A stretch of DNA of 64,000 nucleotides. It comes from an uncultured Verrucomicrobiae bacterium (GTDB lineage: Bacteria; Verrucomicrobiota; Verrucomicrobiia; Chthoniobacterales; JAFAMB01). The position numbers were made by a program, and so were the translations under genes. Positions within the stretch are counted from its first letter, which is position 1. Each line of letters opens with the position of its first letter. Of the stretch, positions 4,331-63,342 are shown one piece after another. Location of the stretch: positions 198,286 through 262,285 of the forward strand of contig CAVXLD010000001.1 of NCBI GenBank assembly GCA_963762565.1, written 5' to 3'. The notes under the pieces are model-generated. The model saw only the letters and a program-made list of their open reading frames with translations. It had not been told where the DNA came from and searched no databases.

Positions 4331-4532
4331 CGGAGCTGGGAGGCGTAAGTGGACGTAGTGGACGAAGTAGACGTAGTGGACAAAGTGGACCGGGAGTGGA
4401 CGATTTAACTCCTCGCCGCCGAATCTGAGGACGTCCACTCCGTCAACTCAGTCCATTCCGTCCACTCCTGTCTACTCGGCCGCCCATGCCCGGCGCACCC
4501 CTACTAGCTCCTAGATTCCAGCTCCTAGCTCC
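4331..4532. repeat. Nested palindrome of 9-nt arrays in the aroC / lysR divergent region
   Basis: Six GTAGTGGAC-type units (4345-4401) are mirrored by five GTCCACTCC-type units (4433-4477). An outer ggagctgggagg (4332-4343) is mirrored by ctagctcctagattccagctcctagctcc (4504-4532). Confidence 0.85.
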
Positions 4533-4606
4533 TCTTTTTTACTCGCGCCCGGCGCTGTTACCGGCCAGAAACAAATAGTCGCACCGAAGACCGCCCTGAT
4601 CCTGTC

Positions 4607-7937: not shown

Positions 7938-7953
7938 TGCGCGCTTCTAGCTC

Positions 7954-8499
7954 CTATTTCTGTGGCGTGAGGTTGATGGTAGTCGTCAGCTTAGGGTAAC
8001 CCACAATAGATACCTCCAGAACATAAGGGCGCCCAGGGACCATATCACGGGTCGAGATGGTACCCGGAAACTCTGAGCGTTCATTGGGATTTACGATCAC
8101 GTACGCCGGATTTTGCGTGACCGGTTGATCGTCGCTCCATTGAACGAGTTTCTTGCCGGCCTCATCCCGGAGGAGGAAGTCATATTCGCGGCTGTCGTTG
8201 AACTGAAGCGTTACCCCCTTCTTGGACCGGTTGATGAGGATAATCCGCGCCTCAAACGACCTTGTATCCGGGAGTTTGATAGTATCGGGCGACAACACGA
8301 CCCGCATTTCCAACCCATACGCCACGACTCCCGTGATCTTCCCGAACGGATTGATTTTCTCAGTCTTAGCGGCATTCGGAACTGCACCAGGACGCTCGGG
8401 CTTCGGACCTACAAACGGGACCCAGCGGTGAAGCTTCTGGGAAGAACAGGCAGTGAAGGCGAGTAGGAGTAGGCTTAACGTCCTAAGGCGTAAATGCAT
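7954..8499 (-). CDS. Lipoprotein, possibly BsuPI-type proteinase-inhibitor fold
   Basis: Signal peptide with lipobox LLLLAFTAC. The beta-rich pattern ILINRSKKGVTLQFNDSREYDFLLRDEAGKKLVQWS resembles BsuPI, but the assignment is weak. Confidence 0.45.
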   Translation of the reverse strand: MHLRLRTLSLLLLAFTACSSQKLHRWVPFVGPKPERPGAVPNAAKTEKINPFGKITGVVAYGLEMRVVLSPDTIKLPDTRSFEARIILINRSKKGVTLQFNDSREYDFLLRDEAGKKLVQWSDDQPVTQNPAYVIVNPNERSEFPGTISTRDMVPGRPYVLEVSIVGYPKLTTTINLTPQK

Positions 8500-21061: not shown

Positions 21062-21783
21062 AGCCAGCGGCGCGCTCCCTGCAAAATTCCATTTTCGATT
21101 GGGATCGCCCGAGATGGAACGGACGGTTGCTGTGGCTAATTGTGTTTTCTTTAGGCCTACACTTCGCGGGACTTTACGTTTTCCATGTTGTTTACCCGTC
21201 AACCACTTCTCTGCCTCCCCCAGCGGCTCAAGTCTCGGTACTGAATCCACAAAACCCACAGGACCGCCGGCTCCTTGATTGGGTGGACCTAAACGATCCG
21301 TCTGCGATTAGCGCCCCCAAAGTAGACGACAGCCTGGTCGCAAAATTAGTCCCGGGTTATCGTCCGACGTTTAGCGACGAGACCCCTGAAATCCGGAAAA
21401 GCCAGGCCGGCGCCCCAGCCCAGGAGGCGGCTACTCCTTCGCTTTTTACTCCCGACAATCTTTTCCCTAGGCAAGTCAGGCCTGCTTCTGTTCAACGGAA
21501 GACCAGTTTCGCAAGCCACCTTGAGTTCGGGCCCGCCTTGGAAAATAGAAAACCGGCCACACCGGAGAGACTCCCGACCAGCCAGCGGCTCTCAGAACCC
21601 ACGACTTTCTTTGTGGGAATCAATAAGAAAGGCGAAGTAAAATACCTTTTTCTATTGCGAACTTCGGGAAATGATCAGCTGGATCATCTTGCCGAAGAGG
21701 CTGTTAAGCAGCTGAGATTTCAGCCCGATAACACCGAGAGCTGGGACACGGTTTCGCTGCAGTGGGGCAGCGGCGGGAAGTGA
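21058..21783 (+). CDS. TonB-like / hypothetical anchored protein
   Basis: GTGA overlap with exbD. N-terminal TM, Pro-rich linker, and a C-terminal ~70 aa (VKYLFLLRTSGNDQLDHLAEEAVKQLRFQP) compatible with a TonB C-terminal fold. Weak assignment. Confidence 0.45.
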   Translation: MKPAARSLQNSIFDWDRPRWNGRLLWLIVFSLGLHFAGLYVFHVVYPSTTSLPPPAAQVSVLNPQNPQDRRLLDWVDLNDPSAISAPKVDDSLVAKLVPGYRPTFSDETPEIRKSQAGAPAQEAATPSLFTPDNLFPRQVRPASVQRKTSFASHLEFGPALENRKPATPERLPTSQRLSEPTTFFVGINKKGEVKYLFLLRTSGNDQLDHLAEEAVKQLRFQPDNTESWDTVSLQWGSGGK

Positions 21784-29649: not shown

Positions 29650-29688
29650 GCCGTTTCGCGCCTAGCGCAGGCGAGCCGGTCACGACTT

Positions 29689-29892
29689 GGAGGGGAGCCG
29701 CTTTGGAATTTTGCGGATCCGTAAGTTGGCAGCAAGCGGCTCCCGGGAACGGTCCAGGGCTGGGCAGCTCTGTGACGGCTTCAAATCGATGCTTGCAACC
29801 GGGTTCTTCCGCCGTGCCTCACATTGGGTAATTCCCGGGAGCCGCTTGCTACCAACCTACAGATCTGCCACGCTACAAAGCGGCTCCCCTCC
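29689..29892. repeat. Family B element, copy B2 (204 nt, double nested inverted repeats)
   Basis: Outer ggaggggagccgctttg (29689-29705) / caaagcggctcccctcc (29876-29892). Inner ttggcagcaagcggctcccgggaa (29726-29749) / ttcccgggagccgcttgctaccaa (29832-29855). Confidence 0.9.
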
Positions 29893-30018
29893 AGTCCTTG
29901 GGCGTGCGACGCCACCGGGCTGATTGCGATGACGAGAACGAAGATGATCGCGCCACAGTGATCACTCACTCCTTGCAAGCCCAGCAGCTCCAGGCCACGG
30001 TTTGGCAGACCTAAAGTT

Positions 30019-34492: not shown

Positions 34493-34600
34493 CCTGAACT
34501 CCCCGACTCCGCAAAGCCTACGTCGCGGCAAGCCTTGAACTCCCCGACTTCGCAGAGCCTACGTCGCGGCAGGCCTTGAACTCCTTGAACTCCTTGAGCT
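34493..34600. repeat. Tandem repeat: 2 x ~40 nt followed by 3 x 9 nt
   Basis: cctgaactccccgactccgcaaagcctacgtcgcggcaag (34493-34532), ccttgaactccccgacttcgcagagcctacgtcgcggcagg (34533-34573), then ccttgaact ccttgaact ccttgagct. Confidence 0.85.
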
Positions 34601-34616
34601 ACCGTCTGCCTTGGGA

Positions 34617-36053
34617 ATGCCAGCCAGCCACGAATATGATGCGGTTGTAGTGGGCGCAGGACCGAACGGCTTGTCTGCAGCTATCCGTATCGCTCAGCAC
34701 GGCTTTTCCACCTTGGTCTTAGAACAGAGCACAATTATTGGGGGCGCTTGCCGCACGGAAGAACTCACTCTTCCGGGATTCCGGCACGACGTCGGGTCTG
34801 CGGTTCATCCTCTTGCCCTAGGTTCGCCTTTCTTTTCCTCTCTGCCACTCGAAGAGCACGGTCTGAGTTGGTTGCAACCGACAATTCCACTCGCACATCC
34901 GATCGATAAAAACCGAATCGCCGTTCTTTATCAGTCCCTCGAAAAGACTGCGCTTCTCTTCGGACGCGATGCCGACCACTATACCAGGCTGTTTAGACCA
35001 CTGGTCGCGAACTGGCGAAGCCTTCTGCACGAGTTTCTCCAACCAATAATCCATCGCCCGCAGCACCTGTTGCAGATGGCTCAATTTGGCTGCATGGCTC
35101 TCCTTTCAGTCGAGCAACTGGTCCGGAGACGCTTTTCGGAAGAAAAAACCAGAGCTTTATTGGCAGGCTTGGGAGCACATTCTTTTTTATCATTGAGTAG
35201 CCCAGGCTCAGCCTCCTTCGTTTTGGTTCTCGGATTGCTGGCTCACGCAGTCGGTTGGCCGATCCCCAAGGGTGGTGCCGGCTCGATCACTCAAGCTCTG
35301 TCGCAATATTTGTCATCGCTCGGAGGAAGGATCGAGACCGGTAGGCCGATAAAGAGCTTTCGGGAACTGCCGAAAGCCCGAGCGGTGCTCTATGACCTTA
35401 CTCCCCGGCAGCTCATCCAAATCGAGTCACTGCCGAGCGGTTATCAACGGAAACTCGAACGATTCAAGTATGGACCAGCGGTTTTTAAGATCGACTACGC
35501 TCTGGATGGAAACATCCCTTGGGTCCATGAGGCGTGCCATAGCGCCGGCACCGTTCATCTGGGAGGCACGTTCGAGGAAGTAGCCTTGGCGGAATCAAAA
35601 GTTGCTTCTAGAGGCTACACCGACCAGCCTTTCCTATTGCTCAGCCAACCGACCTTATTGGATCCAACCAGGGCGCCAGCCGGCAAGCACGTGCTTTGGG
35701 CTTACGCTCATGTTCCCTTTGGCTCAGACCGTGATCTCACCGAGATCATCGAACGACAAATCGACCGCTTTGCACCGGGATTTTCCAAGCACGTCATGGC
35801 GCGACACGTTAGTTCACCGGCACAGCTGCAGACCATGAACCCGAATTTGGTCGGTGGAACCATAACCGGCGGGGCTAACCATTTGTGGCAATTGATCGCT
35901 AGACCGACGCTTAGCGCCGTCCCCTATCGGACGCCAAAAAAAGGGGTGTATCTTTGCTCTTCATCAACACCGCCTGGTGGCGGCGTTCACGGGATGTGCG
36001 GATTCCACGCGGCCAATGCGGTTTTACGAGATTTTCATCGGAGTTCGAAGTAA
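34617..36053 (+). CDS. NAD(P)/FAD-dependent oxidoreductase, phytoene-desaturase (CrtI)-related
   Basis: YDAVVVGAGPNGLSAA dinucleotide-binding motif. About 480 aa, amine-oxidase-like. Confidence 0.8.
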   Translation: MPASHEYDAVVVGAGPNGLSAAIRIAQHGFSTLVLEQSTIIGGACRTEELTLPGFRHDVGSAVHPLALGSPFFSSLPLEEHGLSWLQPTIPLAHPIDKNRIAVLYQSLEKTALLFGRDADHYTRLFRPLVANWRSLLHEFLQPIIHRPQHLLQMAQFGCMALLSVEQLVRRRFSEEKTRALLAGLGAHSFLSLSSPGSASFVLVLGLLAHAVGWPIPKGGAGSITQALSQYLSSLGGRIETGRPIKSFRELPKARAVLYDLTPRQLIQIESLPSGYQRKLERFKYGPAVFKIDYALDGNIPWVHEACHSAGTVHLGGTFEEVALAESKVASRGYTDQPFLLLSQPTLLDPTRAPAGKHVLWAYAHVPFGSDRDLTEIIERQIDRFAPGFSKHVMARHVSSPAQLQTMNPNLVGGTITGGANHLWQLIARPTLSAVPYRTPKKGVYLCSSSTPPGGGVHGMCGFHAANAVLRDFHRSSK

Positions 36054-36055
36054 AT

Positions 36056-36182
36056 GTGGAGCGCTGCCTCGCTTGCGAGGCCGTGGTGAGCAGGGCAAGA
36101 TGCTGTGTCATACGCCATTTTTTCGATGCTAGGTGACGTCGCCCTGCTTACCAACGGCCTCGCAAGCGAGGCAGCGCTCCAC
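36056..36182. repeat. Family E element, copy E1 (127 nt)
   Basis: About 40-nt TIRs: gtggagcgctgcctcgcttgcgaggccgtggtgagcagggc / gccctgcttaccaacggcctcgcaagcgaggcagcgctccac. Each TIR holds the self-complementary CCTCGCTTGCGAGG. Confidence 0.9.
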
Positions 36183-36266
36183 ACGGCGTTCTGGCGCGTT
36201 TACTTGACGCAGAAACGTTCAGGCAGATACTTACGCCGCTAGTCTCCCTATTTATCCCCCAAAACC

Positions 36267-38767: not shown

Positions 38768-38817
38768 CCATGGAAGACATCCCCCAACCTGCCTTTGGCC
38801 GACGCAATTCGGACCCG

Positions 38818-39022
38818 GAGGGGAGCCGCTTTATCGTTAGGCAGCTCTGTAATTCGGCAGCAAGCGGCTCCCGAGAACGGCCCCGGATGATGCAGGTCTA
38901 TTGGGCAGCCATATCGACCAGCTTGGAACAGAGCCGCTGGGCAAATATTTACGCTGGGTTATTCCCGGGAGCCGCCTGCTGCCAACTGATAGGACTGCCA
39001 CACTACAAAGCGGCTCCCCTCC
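38818..39022. repeat. Family B element, copy B3 (205 nt)
   Basis: Outer repeats 38818-38834 / 39006-39022. Inner repeats 38853-38877 / 38962-38985. The right flank ctgggcatgcgacgcc resembles the B2 flank. Confidence 0.9.
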
Positions 39023-39068
39023 AGGCGCTGGGCATGCGACGCCGTGTTCTTAGAAGCACGAAGCGCAC

Positions 39069-47328: not shown

Positions 47329-47340
47329 TCCATTTAATTT

Positions 47341-47422
47341 CACCACAGAGAGACAGAGGACACAAAAGCCAAAATTCGGTTTCCCTTAGGATGACCTTTG
47401 TGTCCCCTGTCTCTCTGTGGTG
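47341..47422. repeat. 26-bp-stem hairpin downstream of clpX
   Basis: caccacagagagacagaggacacaaa (47341-47366) pairs with tttgtgtcccctgtctctctgtggtg (47397-47422), with one mismatch and a 30-nt loop. Confidence 0.85.
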
Positions 47423-47425
47423 AAA

Positions 47426-48694
47426 TTAAGCGGCGTCCTTGTCCTGCTTCCTGCGAATTAGAGGAGCTCGTTTGCCCTCAACCACGGCCCGATTGATCAC
47501 CACGTCAGCGATGTCTTCCCGGCTCGGAACGTCGTACATAACGTCGAGCATGATTTTTTCGAACATGGAACGAAGCGCACGCGCCCCAGTTCCTTTGGTG
47601 GCCGCCTGTTGGGCCAACGCCCGGAGAGCGTCCTTAGTAACCACCAAGTTCACTCCCTCCATCGCCAATAGTTTGGTGTACTGCTTCACCATCGCGTTCC
47701 GCGTGTCGGTCAATATCAGGATTAACTCTTCCTCGGTTAAGGTATCCAGCGCCGTCACAATCGGTAACCGGCCGATGAACTCCGGTATCATCCCGAAGGA
47801 GAGCAGATCTTCGGGTTCGGTATGCCGCAAGGTATCACGCAACTGGAGGTCTGAGGAACTGATTTGAGGCGAATGAAAACCGAGTACTCGGTTCCCTAAC
47901 CGTCGATTAATCAGCCGGTCTAACCCCACAAAGGCTCCGCCGCAGATAAACAAAATCTTTTCCGTGTTAACCTGGATATACTCCTGGTGAGGATGCTTTC
48001 GTCCACCTTGAGGCGGGACATTGCAGCTGCTTCCTTCCAAAATCTTCAGAAGCGCCTGCTGGACGCCCTCACCGGAAACATCGCGGGTAATACTGACGTT
48101 ATCGGTTTTACGGCCGATCTTATCTATTTCATCGATATAAACGATTCCAATCTCGGCTCGTTTAACGTCGTAGTCAGCATTCTGCAGGAGCCGCAAGATG
48201 ATATTCTCGACGTCTTCCCCAACGTAACCGGCCTCGGTCAACGTCGTAGCATCAGCGATACAAAACGGCACATCCAGAATTCGGGCTAGTGTCCTGGCCA
48301 GGAGCGTCTTTCCGCACCCAGTTGGCCCGATCATCAAAATATTGCTCTTTTCAATCTCGACGTCAGCGTATGGATCGAGGGATAGATCCTTGGTCGGGTT
48401 GGCGTTCAGAATCCGCTTGTAATGGTTGTGGACGGCCACGGAAAGGACCTTCTTGGCCGAATCCTGCCCAATCACATGCTGATCGAGTTCGCGCCTGATC
48501 TCGACTGGCTTCGGCACACGCAGCGTTGTGGTCTGCCGTCGGGCGTCCTCGTTTAGCTCTTTATCGAGGATGCCTTTACAAACGTTGATACAATTATCGC
48601 AGATGTAGACACCCGGCCCGGCGATCAATTTGCGAACCTCTGCGTGGCTCTTTCCGCAGAAAGAACACATCGTCAGATTAGAGGCCCGGGCCAT
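47426..48694 (-). CDS. clpX: ATP-dependent Clp protease ATP-binding subunit ClpX
   Basis: N-terminal zinc ribbon CSFCGK...CDNC, Walker A GPTGCGKT, and the IGFG-like loop region. Confidence 0.97.
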
Positions 48695-53919: not shown

Positions 53920-54834
53920 ATGCGTTTGCGCGTGGCCGTAGCTGTACTGGGTTTCTGTTTTATTCAGGCTTTCTCGGCAACTGCATCGCTTCCTTTCAGC
54001 ACCGTTTTCAAAGGCGAACCAATTTTTGATTTATTGGTGCGCAGAGCCGAGCAAGAAGGCTGGCGTTCGCGACCATTGGGTGAGCGAATGGTTTTGGTCG
54101 GGAAAGCTTTACTGGGCACGCCATACCGCAGCTTTACCTTGGAAATTGACGATCACATCGAAGCACCTTCGGTCGATTTCCTCGGCATGGATTGTTGGAC
54201 CTTTTACGAGATCGCTCTCGCATTCTCCAGAATGCTCGAATTGAAATCGAGTGCGTACAGTCCCCAGGATCTCTTGTCCATCATCGAGCTGGATCGTTAC
54301 CGAGGTGGACACTGCAATGGTCTCTACACCTCGCGTTTGCACTTTCTTGAGGACTGGATTTACGACAATCAGAGGCGCGGTTTGGTCCAGAATATGACCG
54401 TCAGTCTAGGCGGGGTTCCGATGCGCGGCCGCTATCTCAACGAGATGAGCAAGTATTGGCGTAGCTCGCGGTATTTGCGGAACAATCCCAATCTGATTCC
54501 GGTGATCCGCAACATGGAAGAAACCGTAGCCTCTCGCCCGATTTACCATATCCCGAGAGACCGGGTCGCCGCCATCGAGCCTAAGATTCGAAGCGGTGAC
54601 ATCATCTGCATCACCGGCCGGGGACCCGAAGGATTTACCGAGCACGTCGGGATTGCTTATCGAGACGGCGTCGGCGTTCTGCATTTCATGCATGCGTCCA
54701 AGGACGAACACCAGGTCATGATTGATGTCGCTCTGCATCAATACGTCTACCGGTATCGTAAATTCGCCGGCATCATGGTAGTGCGGCCCGTTGATTTATC
54801 GCCGGGCGAGGAGTCGCATGTCGCAGCCAACTAG
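53920..54834 (+). CDS. DUF1460-like (amidase-like) secreted protein
   Basis: Signal peptide. The LLGTPYRSFTLE...DCWTFYEIALAFSRM pattern is as I recall for DUF1460. Not verified. Confidence 0.55.
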   Translation: MRLRVAVAVLGFCFIQAFSATASLPFSTVFKGEPIFDLLVRRAEQEGWRSRPLGERMVLVGKALLGTPYRSFTLEIDDHIEAPSVDFLGMDCWTFYEIALAFSRMLELKSSAYSPQDLLSIIELDRYRGGHCNGLYTSRLHFLEDWIYDNQRRGLVQNMTVSLGGVPMRGRYLNEMSKYWRSSRYLRNNPNLIPVIRNMEETVASRPIYHIPRDRVAAIEPKIRSGDIICITGRGPEGFTEHVGIAYRDGVGVLHFMHASKDEHQVMIDVALHQYVYRYRKFAGIMVVRPVDLSPGEESHVAAN

Positions 54835-54883
54835 TCTGGTGGTTATCCATTCGTGGTTCGTAAACGGCCAGAGGTGGTCCGGC

Positions 54884-55200
54884 AGTAAGCGGTAAGCAGT
54901 AAGCAGTGGTCAGTACTACGAGCTAAAATCCAGGAGCTAGGAGGGCCGACGGCTGTGGAGCGTGCCTCGCTTGCGAGTCCGTGGTGAGCAAGGCTCATTA
55001 CGTGACATCCCCATCGTCGGCGTACGCTCTTTTGTCTGAAGAGGCAAACCTTGCGATACAGAGCGCTGACCGACATAGGGCATGTGTCGTGGTTCACCCT
55101 TGCTCTCCAACGGCCTCGCAAGCGAGGCACGCTCCACGGCCGTCGCCCCTCCTAGCTCCTAAATTCTAGCTCCTAGCTCCTAAACTGCTTACTGCTTACT
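54884..55200. repeat. Family E element, copy E2, with two nested layers of inverted arrays
   Basis: AGTAAGC units then AGCTAGGAG units on the left. TIRs 54955-54993 / 55098-55137. CTCCTAGCT units then GCTTACT units on the right. Confidence 0.9.
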
Positions 55201-55238
55201 TTCGCGCCATCACCCAAACGCTCGCTAACGCTCGATTT

Positions 55239-55832
55239 ATGGGCCATACTCCCCCCATGGCAGCGACACCTTCTATGATGGTAGAGCTAGGGCGCAAAGC
55301 TCCTGATTTTCACCTGCCGGATGTTGCAGATGGCAGGATGGTTAGCCTCTCCGATTTCGGTCCGGATCAGGCATTACTGGTGATGTTCATCTGCCGGCAC
55401 TGTCCTTACGTTCTGCACGTGAAGCCGGAACTGGCCCGGCTCGCAACGGATTACCAGGAAAAAAGCGTCGGGATTGTCGGAATTAGCTCCAACGACGCTC
55501 AACATTATCCGGATGACGCACCGGATAAGCTGGCTGAGCTGAGCCGGGATCTGGGCATTCCGGTTCTCTACGACGAAAGCCAATCCGTTGCCAAAGCGTA
55601 CCAGGCCACTTGCACACCCGATTTTTTCGTGTTCGACGGAAATCGGACGCTGGTTTACCGGGGCCAGCTTGATGACAGCCGGCCCGGGAACAGCCGGCCG
55701 TTGAACGGCCGCGATTTGCGGGCCGCTCTAGATGCAGTCTTAGCCGGACGCGTAGTCGACTCTACTCAGCGCGCCAGCATCGGTTGCAACATCAAATGGA
55801 AACCGGGGAACGCTCCCGATTATTTCCGTTGA
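55239..55832 (+). CDS. Thioredoxin-fold (AhpC/TSA-like) protein
   Basis: CRHCPYV redox-type motif within a thioredoxin-fold pattern. Confidence 0.7.
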   Translation: MGHTPPMAATPSMMVELGRKAPDFHLPDVADGRMVSLSDFGPDQALLVMFICRHCPYVLHVKPELARLATDYQEKSVGIVGISSNDAQHYPDDAPDKLAELSRDLGIPVLYDESQSVAKAYQATCTPDFFVFDGNRTLVYRGQLDDSRPGNSRPLNGRDLRAALDAVLAGRVVDSTQRASIGCNIKWKPGNAPDYFR

Positions 55833-63092: not shown

Positions 63093-63125
63093 TGTAGACA
63101 TGGACCCGGAAGGGGGAGACACCCG

Positions 63126-63335
63126 GAGGGGAGCCGCTTTGTCAGACGCTAGCTGTGTTCGGTCGGCAGCAGGCGGCTCCCGGGAATAGCCCAGCGCGTT
63201 CTATTTATCCAGCGCCTACTTCGTTGAAGCACCGACACGGACAGAGCCTATAGAGCTGGATTACCTGGCAGACGTTACCGGGAGCCGCCTGCAAGCAACC
63301 GATAGACCTGCCAACTTACAAAGCGGCTCCCCTCC
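63126..63335. repeat. Family B element, copy B4 (210 nt)
   Basis: Outer repeats 63126-63142 / 63319-63335. Inner tcggcagcaggcggctcccgggaa (63163-63186) / ttaccgggagccgcctgcaagcaa (63275-63298). Confidence 0.85.
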
Positions 63336-63342
63336 GGCGCCG

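Follow-up and report, generated by a model that had tools for sequence, protein, structure and literature searches.

Family E of the Chthoniobacterales: a dispersed palindromic repeat, probably of the REPIN kind, sometimes nested in mirrored heptamer arrays

The spacer between an amiA-like gene and an AhpC/TSA-type gene in an uncultured Verrucomicrobiae bacterium (order Chthoniobacterales; GenBank assembly GCA_963762565.1, contig CAVXLD010000001.1, positions 198,286 to 262,285 of the forward strand, a stretch of 64,000 nt referred to here as the window) holds a set of inverted repeats stacked inside one another: a core whose inverted termini each contain a smaller palindrome and, around it, two layers of mirrored tandem arrays. 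The core recurs once more in the window, downstream of an oxidoreductase gene, and the two copies, E1 and E2, define what we call Family E. The locus raises the question of whether such stacked layers are one element or several, and of what kind of element the core is. Family E is a conserved, dispersed, multi-copy and non-coding palindromic repeat, which can be gained at a locus and can persist there with turnover of its interior, and it is independent of the heptamer scaffolds in which it is sometimes nested. We hold with high confidence that it is a dispersed palindromic repeat of the kind that includes REP (repetitive extragenic palindromic) sequences and REPINs (REP doublets forming hairpins). 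The narrower reading, by which Family E is a non-autonomous REP/REPIN-like extragenic palindromic repeat of soil Chthoniobacterales, organised like REPINs or BIMEs (bacterial interspersed mosaic elements), is the one that we favour as probable. This would be a REP/REPIN-like family not previously described, in a group of soil bacteria that is abundant yet almost uncultured; the literature searched gave no account of Family E, nor of mirrored heptamer arrays in Verrucomicrobia.

Copies, distribution and anatomy of Family E

E1 and E2 share inverted termini of about 40 nt, each terminus with the palindrome GCCTCGCTTGCGAGGC (coordinates in Table 1), as an earlier interpretation of the window from its letters alone, the sequence-only reading, had correctly described. 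A 27-mer common to both copies, GCCTCGCTTGCGAGNCCGTGGTGAGCA, occurs twice in the window, only in left arms, and is not seen in any of 100 shuffles; in the right arms it appears as its reverse complement, with one base added. The palindrome CCTCGCTTGCGAGG is confined, within the window, to the four E arms, and a profile of E arms finds exactly four arms there. E1 begins 1 nt past the stop codon (TAA, 36051-36053) of the oxidoreductase gene (34611-36053), and comprises a perfect inverted repeat of 30 nt (36055-36084 / 36154-36183) and a second inverted segment of 13 nt, with a 1-nt bulge, around a 44-nt centre. For E2, the core first delimited at 54955-55137 is real, but the inverted repeat runs about 8 nt further, to 54947-55145; arms of 67 nt (54916-54982 / 55110-55176) are 90% complementary around 127 nt. 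A G>T change at 54978 (…GAGT) places one mismatch in the left-arm palindrome and breaks the small hairpin there. The closest strain, GCA_049577925.1 (L040; loci of the comparison bear L numbers), is nearly identical to the window, and its E2 is the same except for one single-nucleotide polymorphism in the extended left arm (C at window 54950, A at 2712 in L040), which breaks one base pair and has no compensating change. With E2 present, this strain provides no empty site.

The family reaches well beyond these two copies, and the case that the sequence-only reading had named as fatal to it, two copies in the genome and no conservation in relatives, does not apply. A pattern scan of one genome per species (596 Gb) with the query TGCCTCGCTTGCGAGNCCGT returned at least 39 loci, with about 4 matches expected by chance; L010, L011, L034 and L037 look like such chance matches, lying in coding sequence without GTGGAGCG. 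Among the matches listed, the remainder come from at least 10 metagenome-assembled genomes (MAGs), with at least 13 loci in one of them. The 10 MAGs are labelled 'Verrucomicrobiota' (three), 'Chthoniobacterales' (two) and, in four genomes of the Microflora Danica set, as other phyla; one is unclassified. Copies also lie on metagenome contigs of the Joint Genome Institute, and the arm profile yields 99 matches at E ≤ 1e-3 in 44 sources. No Family E match was found in the plasmids and viral contigs searched. A protein named 'Chthoniobacterales bacterium' matches the window's oxidoreductase at 100% identity. Genuine paired E occurs at L005, L022, L029, L013 and L024, in Microflora Danica MAGs labelled Actinomycetota, Acidobacteriota or Alphaproteobacteria, and these loci also have heptamer arrays typical of Chthoniobacterales; the labels could be mistaken, or the repeats could have passed between phyla.

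From this sample, 31 complete inverted pairs were extracted, together with roughly a dozen arms that occur solo. The arm is a module of about 28-43 nt, (CC)GTGGAGCG(C)T-GCCTCG-CTTG-CGAGGC-CG…, with a perfect 16-nt palindrome inside; its consensus is CCGTGGAGCGCTGCCTCGCTTGCGAGGCCG, followed by TGGTGAGCAGGG or by a GCGCGGTCGGCACCC linker, and GTGGAGCG is at least 90% conserved although it lies outside the search pattern. Paired arms enclose a fast-evolving, weakly structured centre of 18-310 nt, and a single strand of a paired copy would form a hairpin with a stem of about 45-55 bp. Pairs fall into size classes of 92 nt, about 129-131 nt (that of E1), about 187-190 nt (that of E2 and of seven further copies), about 216-261 nt and about 366-376 nt. 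Arms also stand in direct tandem, as units of 42-43 nt (three in L025, two in L029, and three in L020 against two in its ortholog L015). The centres of E1 and E2 had been described as unrelated, which is inaccurate at family level: E centres are homologous, about 50-75% identical and have an intrinsic orientation, and E2, centre included, is homologous over its whole length to other copies of about 189 nt (L013, L021, L024, L028 and L036; BLAST identity 70-75% over the full length with L021, L024 and L028).

All copies inspected are intergenic, usually 0-50 nt from a stop codon, in convergent (10), co-directional (11) or divergent (3) spacers. Their neighbours are ordinary genes, encoding for example isocitrate dehydrogenase, thiolase, ATP-binding cassette (ABC) components and short-chain dehydrogenases/reductases (SDRs); an association with particular genes was considered and rejected, the recurrent neighbours being common paralogues only (ABC ATPases and SDRs).

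Long terminal inverted repeats, the lack of coding capacity in E elements, deletion-like size classes and presence/absence polymorphism are all features of a classical miniature inverted-repeat transposable element (MITE), that is, of an element left by internal deletion of a DDE-type insertion sequence, whose transposase moves it via the terminal inverted repeats. MITE-type hairpin repeats such as Correia/NEMIS of Neisseria, ERIC, RUP and Nezha are intergenic, 100-250 nt long and bounded by terminal inverted repeats; they are co-transcribed with their neighbours and fold into long RNA hairpins, those of Correia being RNase III substrates. Such repeats derive from DDE-type insertion sequences and make target-site duplications (TA for Correia). 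Family E is like them in its length, its terminal inverted repeats, its intergenic site and its predicted long hairpin but lacks the duplication: at 27 inspected copies there is no target-site duplication of fixed length and no consistent direct repeat at the inverted-repeat limits, which measures 0 nt in 19 copies and fits chance in the others. Nor does any transposase adjoin or lie inside a copy in the 715 kb scanned; the loci examined, and the plasmids and viral contigs, which lack E altogether, showed no parent insertion sequence bounded by E termini; and the solo and direct tandem arms recall REPs and BIMEs. We consider a MITE origin very unlikely.

Orthologous loci and the heptamer layers

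The two window copies differ in their history. At the E1 locus, oxidoreductase homologues of 84-93% identity were traced to their contigs. Three of these (L123, L124 and L125; 90%) have a full-length E of 211 nt at the E1 site; L122 (91%) has E arms around an interior of about 390 nt belonging to the GGAGCCGC family; in L126 (84%) a left arm is accompanied by a degenerate unit; and L121 (93%) has other sequence past the stop, where its contig ends. The supposedly unrelated centre of E1 is explained by this comparison, since tcatac.c.attt.ttcgatgc is common to E1 and L123, so that E1 derives by internal deletion from a full-length copy kept at the orthologous site. The 28-nt arm cores at this locus differ at 0-1 positions, the adjacent gene has 86% nucleotide identity and the centres are unalignable; the arms of L122-L126, found by protein synteny alone, are also conserved. 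The same pattern of retained arms and differing interior is seen at another locus, in L015 and L020. E is ancestral at the E1 locus, with its termini retained and its interior swapped or deleted, and such near-invariant termini are able to persist at one locus while the interior is exchanged.

Further features lie beside E1. Past the stop in L121 (2385-2410), where other orthologs have E, is TACCACAAAGACACAAAGGACA, similar to a 38-nt inverted repeat at 47334-47429 of the window, TTAATTTCACCACAGAGAGACAGAGGACACAAAAGCC, which suggests a different element at the E1 site in L121. A sigma-70-like site (TTGACG-16-GATACT) lies at 36204-36231, between E1 and a gene for a sugar-binding protein; this stretch is conserved in L122 and L123, and the sequence adjoining E varies. 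Just upstream of the oxidoreductase gene that precedes E1, positions 34495-34584 hold 2.2 copies of a tandem repeat with a 41-nt unit (93% matches), after which comes (CCTTGAACT)n; the unit AACTCCTTG also occurs in L123-L125.

At the E2 locus, a metagenome scan with the upstream amiA-like protein recovered 80 loci at 63-92% amino-acid identity, in most of which synteny from the amiA-like gene to the AhpC/TSA gene is kept. Family E is present in none of 41 distinct amiA-like→AhpC spacers, and all 80 amiA-type loci are free of matches to the arm profile; it follows that E2 was gained in the lineage of the window. The outer layers are retained in the closest clade (84-88% identity). One locus, L049, reads (AGTAATC)n-(TAGGAGC)n-37 nt-(GCTCCTA)n-(GATTACT)n, an 'empty' two-layer scaffold without E. 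Elsewhere the heptamer layer surrounds other centres (L056, L057, L046, L048 and L055), or heptamers and (AGGAGCC)n surround a different core of about 190 nt (L052, L053 and L114). A palindrome of the GGGCGAAAAACTCGGCGCGC type, dispersed over 12 loci, is found in L041, L044 and L045, and the GGAGCCGC family is present at the amiA locus of L092. The 70%-identity clade has (GAACTCAA)n/(TTGAGTTC)n, in copy numbers that differ between near-identical contigs, and many distant orthologs have no hairpin at all (z ~0). The 41 spacers amount to a natural experiment, in which the stacked inverted layers are independent elements of different ages.

E2 is indeed bracketed by two nested inverted array layers, as the sequence-only reading proposed. 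Both have a period of 7, the inner one, which had been taken for a 9-mer layer, consisting of CTCCTAG/CTCCTAA by Tandem Repeats Finder. GTAAGCA and GCTTACT units are mirrored in the outer layer (54882-54907 / 55184-55200), and AGGAGCTAGGAG and CTCCTAGCTCCT in the inner (54932-54943 / 55149-55182). Units of the inner layer had been noticed near 4504-4532 and do recur there, in an array at 4501-4534, which adjoins a (AAGTGGACG)n/(CGTCCACTC)n mirror hairpin at 4347-4477; CTCCTAGCT units are found both in this array and at 7944-7956 (7 matches against 0.8 expected). The layers do not, however, belong to Family E as such. When the presence of layers and core is compared, both layers occur at the orthologous locus without E (L049) and 24 of 33 E copies have no adjacent array; nine touch one, and arrays on both sides are confined to E2 and L035.

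In the relatives, the outer unit differs in both arms, AGTAATC having become AGTAAGC and GATTACT having become GCTTACT in the window; the two arms of the outer heptamer layer have co-evolved. The AGTAATC/GATTACT arrays of the relatives (L041-L057, L088 and L114) contain TTACTGA, one base from TAACTGA (PMC4679880).

The arrays are a separate, lineage-wide class of short tandem repeats, which evolve independently of E. Across 715 kb (the window and 126 loci, the extent of the array and transposase scans), 147 arrays have a period of 7, compared with 26, 41 and 52 for periods of 6, 8 and 9. Their vocabulary recurs at non-orthologous loci: AGTAATC in 14 loci, AGTAAGC in L023, L026, L036 and the window, and AGCTAGG in L021, L036, L038, L049 and the window. 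Of 285 arrays, at least 88 (at least 31%) are accompanied within 600 nt by a reverse-complement partner, at a median gap of 68 nt. Mirrored arrays in the window include those at 21779/21959, 24783/24903, 25782/25849, 26365/26434, 27254/27322, 4347/4432, 7810/7906 and 50798/50953. Cyanobacterial STRR (short tandemly repeated repetitive) sequences are likewise short tandemly repeated heptamers. In Beggiatoaceae, Cyanobacteria and Bacteroidetes, TAACTGA repeats are with few exceptions direct and lie near start codons (MacGregor 2015, PMC4679880). The layers around E2 resemble both: they too are tandem arrays in intergenic DNA, of a class in which a period of 7 nt is strongly preferred and a small set of units recurs across loci. 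They differ in being mirrored into hairpin stems and in belonging to another phylum.

Table 1. Features of Family E and of the associated arrays in the window
Feature	Position	Strand	Remarks
E1, complete yet internally deleted Family E element	36055..36183	.	129 nt; inverted-repeat and profile search
E1 left arm, TGTGGAGCGCTGCCTCGCTTGCGAGGCCGTGGTGAGCAGGGC	36055..36096	+	16-nt palindrome 36066-36081; nhmmer E = 2.9e-15
E1 right arm, reverse complement of E1 left arm with 1-nt bulge	36141..36183	-	palindrome 36157-36172
E2, ~189-nt size class	54947..55145	.	inverted repeat taken outward to its limit; earlier core 54955-55137
E2 left arm	54955..54993	+	palindrome 54964-54979, degenerate
E2 centre	54994..55097	+	diverged, homologous to other copies; intrinsic orientation; conserved GCGCTCT…AGAGCGC stem
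E2 right arm	55098..55137	-	palindrome 55113-55128
Outer layer, left, (GCAGTAA)n	54882..54907	+	period 7, 3.7 copies
Outer layer, right, (ACTGCTT)n	55184..55200	+	period 7; 16/16 complementary to 54892-54907
Inner layer, left, …AGGAGCTAGGAG	54921..54943	+	reverse complement of right CTCCTAG array; partly eroded
Inner layer, right, (CTCCTAG/CTCCTAA)n	55149..55182	+	period 7, 4.9 copies
One-sided (CTAGCTC)n array	4501..4534	+	unit family of E2 inner layer
Composite hairpin (outer heptamers > inner heptamers > E2)	54875..55210	.	between amiA-like gene 53920-54834 and AhpC/TSA-type gene 55239-55832

Folding, mobility and competing explanations

The whole composite block around E2 folds as one hairpin (-214 kcal/mol and z = -18.8 as RNA, z = -16.4 as DNA); for E1 as RNA, z = -12.8. 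It had been proposed that an E element could form either one long stem or a cruciform of small hairpins. The long stem stands; the cruciform is energetically minor, since the small arm hairpins reach -5 to -7.5 kcal/mol as DNA where the long stem exceeds -100 kcal/mol, and the E2 left-arm hairpin is mutated. Three of the four small hairpins are no better than shuffles (z -0.1 to -0.8), and the fourth has z -2.1.

The small hairpin being thermodynamically unremarkable, sequence rather than fold seems to be conserved in the arm, where the palindrome and the adjoining GTGGAGCG hardly vary, in contrast to the drifting centres. This is what a binding site for a host protein would look like, with a dimeric factor, a nucleoid protein or gyrase recognising the perfect 7-2-7 palindrome GCCTCGC-TT-GCGAGGC, and binding of nucleoid protein or gyrase has been proposed for REP/BIME sequences of Escherichia coli. 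There is no candidate protein, however, and no regulatory pattern among the neighbours (ABC transporters, SDRs and dehydrogenases); inverted pairing and the gain at the E2 locus are left unexplained, and the same conservation is compatible with recognition by a transposase, so that it does not favour a host protein exclusively. We give this explanation very little credence.

Taken alone, E centres are no more structured than shuffles (median z = -0.5; 11 of 29 below -2), and the 11 include all four of the longest copies (366-376 nt), which bear nested palindromes of the GGAGCCGC type. The E2 centre is weakly self-complementary, its innermost 79 nt (55007-55085) having z = -2.3. RNAalifold on eight E sequences gave only 5 pairs with double changes, and the idea that interior pairing is kept by covariation was dropped in view of the centres' resemblance to shuffles. 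An apparent strand asymmetry, in which plus and minus folding energies looked consistent (8/8), was also discounted because an inverted repeat reads F→R on both strands. Mismatches of the G·U and A·C types number 195 and 160, and are mixed once copies are placed in intrinsic orientation.

A family of independently transcribed, structured small-RNA genes would account for the very stable long hairpin and for an oriented centre with a conserved GCGCTCT/AGAGCGC stem. Yet the promoter scan found no promoter-like site at or upstream of the E elements, the centres are as unstructured as described, and what is conserved in E pairs as a perfect duplex, contrary to the usual pattern in functional RNAs. 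Rfam returned no match at the gathering threshold over the whole window; the sole relaxed match, MIR918, reached 68 bits where the gathering score is 268, appeared on both strands and was set aside as a generic hairpin artefact. A tRNA search offered no explanation of E either. An RNA-gene origin is extremely improbable.

More weight attaches to the possibility that the stems are host-selected RNA structures of gene 3' ends (non-canonical terminators, mRNA stabilisers or insulators), immobile and kept by the needs of the cell. Family E almost always abuts a gene 3' end, its stems are very stable, and it persists at the E1 locus across lineages; among window spacers of at least 60 nt, 15 of 40 fold with z < -4, and 14 of these 15 hold a gene 3' end. 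Against this, structure of that sort requires pairing, and not a near-invariant 28-nt sequence across unrelated loci and genomes. E is absent from 41 of 41 orthologous amiA→AhpC spacers, many of them without any hairpin, and the hairpin is therefore dispensable at that locus. Promoter and terminator scans found no terminator-like site at E1 or E2, the sequence past their stems is not T-rich, no U-tract follows them, and the mismatches show no consistent strand bias of G·U over A·C. We consider host selection for RNA structure distinctly unlikely as the origin of the family.

The REP/REPIN-like reading accounts for most of what is observed. REPINs have conserved inverted ends and a less conserved spacer, and form hairpins (Bertels and Rainey 2011, PMC3116915). 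As in the REP/REPIN/BIME and RAYT (REP-associated tyrosine transposase) systems of Pseudomonas and Enterobacteria, the unit of Family E is a short palindrome, repeated, extragenic and mostly downstream of genes. It occurs mostly as hairpin-forming inverted doublets with ends more conserved than the spacer, and also as singlets and tandem or mosaic clusters; it makes no target-site duplication, and it persists for long at orthologous sites. TIR (terminal inverted repeat) families associated with TIRYT tyrosine transposases are also comparable, being moderately abundant, with long inverted repeats and some 'double palindromic' TIRs, and occurring as singles, dimers and clusters (PMC3733652).

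Several points weigh against this reading. The described REP superfamilies carry a GTAG or CGTC tag at one end of the palindrome (Di Nocera 2013, PMC3733652), which is absent from the E arm consensus; the outer end of E is GTGGAGCG, 2-3 nt from the 16-nt palindrome. Arms (about 45 nt) and spacers (80-300 nt, homologous between copies and with intrinsic orientation) are longer than in classical REPINs, and the host is an uncultured Chthoniobacterales lineage. A motif scan for RAYTs and other transposases across the 715 kb found none, Pfam found no transposase in 16 neighbouring open reading frames, and the best phmmer match of E. coli RayT to all six-frame reading frames of the 715 kb had E = 0.73, which is no match. 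E likewise lacks the GGGGWSAS motif of several TIRYT TIRs, and no transposase gene flanked by E was observed. Arm conservation is inflated, most copies having been ascertained by an exact 19-base arm pattern. Finally, the lack of consistent G·U versus A·C bias means that there is no positive evidence of selection at the RNA level. Because the GTAG/CGTC tag is missing and no RAYT was found in the 715 kb, Family E is not filed as a member of the REPIN/BIME families, but is treated as a new family of their kind.

RAYTs are single-copy genes. E copies would be mobilised in trans by a single-copy HUH/Y1 transposase, RAYT- or TIRYT-like, which would recognise the small arm hairpin on single-stranded DNA. 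This specific type is put forward as a tentative suggestion on account of the REPIN-like architecture (PMC3116915; PMC3733652), the absence of duplications and insertion at a hairpin apex; a transposase acting on a single-stranded arm hairpin would explain both the missing target duplications and the landing at an apex. As for the history of the two copies, E2 is best read as an insertion, specific to the window's lineage, into the apex of a hairpin that was already resident at the locus and whose stem is the two mirrored heptamer arrays; E1 has long been in place, and most of its centre is gone. The E arm offers a sequence handle for finding the transposase responsible. Where transcribed as part of a 3' untranslated region, E would give a long double-stranded stem; such stems may act at 3' ends as barriers or as RNase III-type processing sites, not as canonical terminators.

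Family E itself is ordinary in kind, and the unusual part of the locus is the combination of nested, co-evolving heptamer scaffolds with turnover at the apex. A broader proposal is that Chthoniobacterales carry lineage-wide, modular 'Russian-doll' hairpins, with co-evolving mirrored heptamer stems and single-stranded apexes that serve as preferred landing pads for several palindromic families. Intrastrand template switching, or else selection for pairing, would keep the two arms of a stem in step, and the apex would receive E, the GGAGGGGAGCCGC family and the GGGCGAAAAACTCGGCGCGC family. We regard this as unlikely. If it were true, it would imply an undescribed hairpin-loop-targeting mechanism of transposition, and composite hairpins could replace canonical terminators at many gene ends; if apex landing and co-evolving heptamer arms hold genome-wide, single-strand hairpins would be both product and target of repeat mobility.

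Other palindromic families

A second nested palindromic family, with outer GGAGGGGAGCCGCTTTG… and inner CAGGCGGCTCCCGG… sequences (GGAGGGGAGCCGC… / CAGGCGGCTCCCGG…), stands free at three places in the window (29688-29893, 38814-39025 and 63123-63337). The same family makes up the interior of E copies of 366-376 nt and, in L092, the apical core at the amiA locus; it is also seen in L006, L009, L017, L035 and L122.

Further families were noticed in the window. Near-perfect inverted repeats of 33-34 nt (…TGTCCCATAARTAACATGGCTTTCG) occur at 28230-28263/28492-28525 and 33565-33597/33826-33858, with arms exactly 228 nt apart in both copies, in spacers at gene 3' ends. A palindromic family GGGGCGAGGCTCCCGAAAG… / …CTTTCGGGAGCCTCGCCC lies at 19732-19764/19922-19954 and 31073-31104/31267-31298, each copy flanked by GTGATTR heptamer arrays. 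In several MAGs a small palindromic repeat, GCTCCGTAGGAGCG(A/C)AATATTTATAGC, adjoins E (L028 570-650, L032 5830-6030, L003 ~750-790), and is probably another REP-like family.

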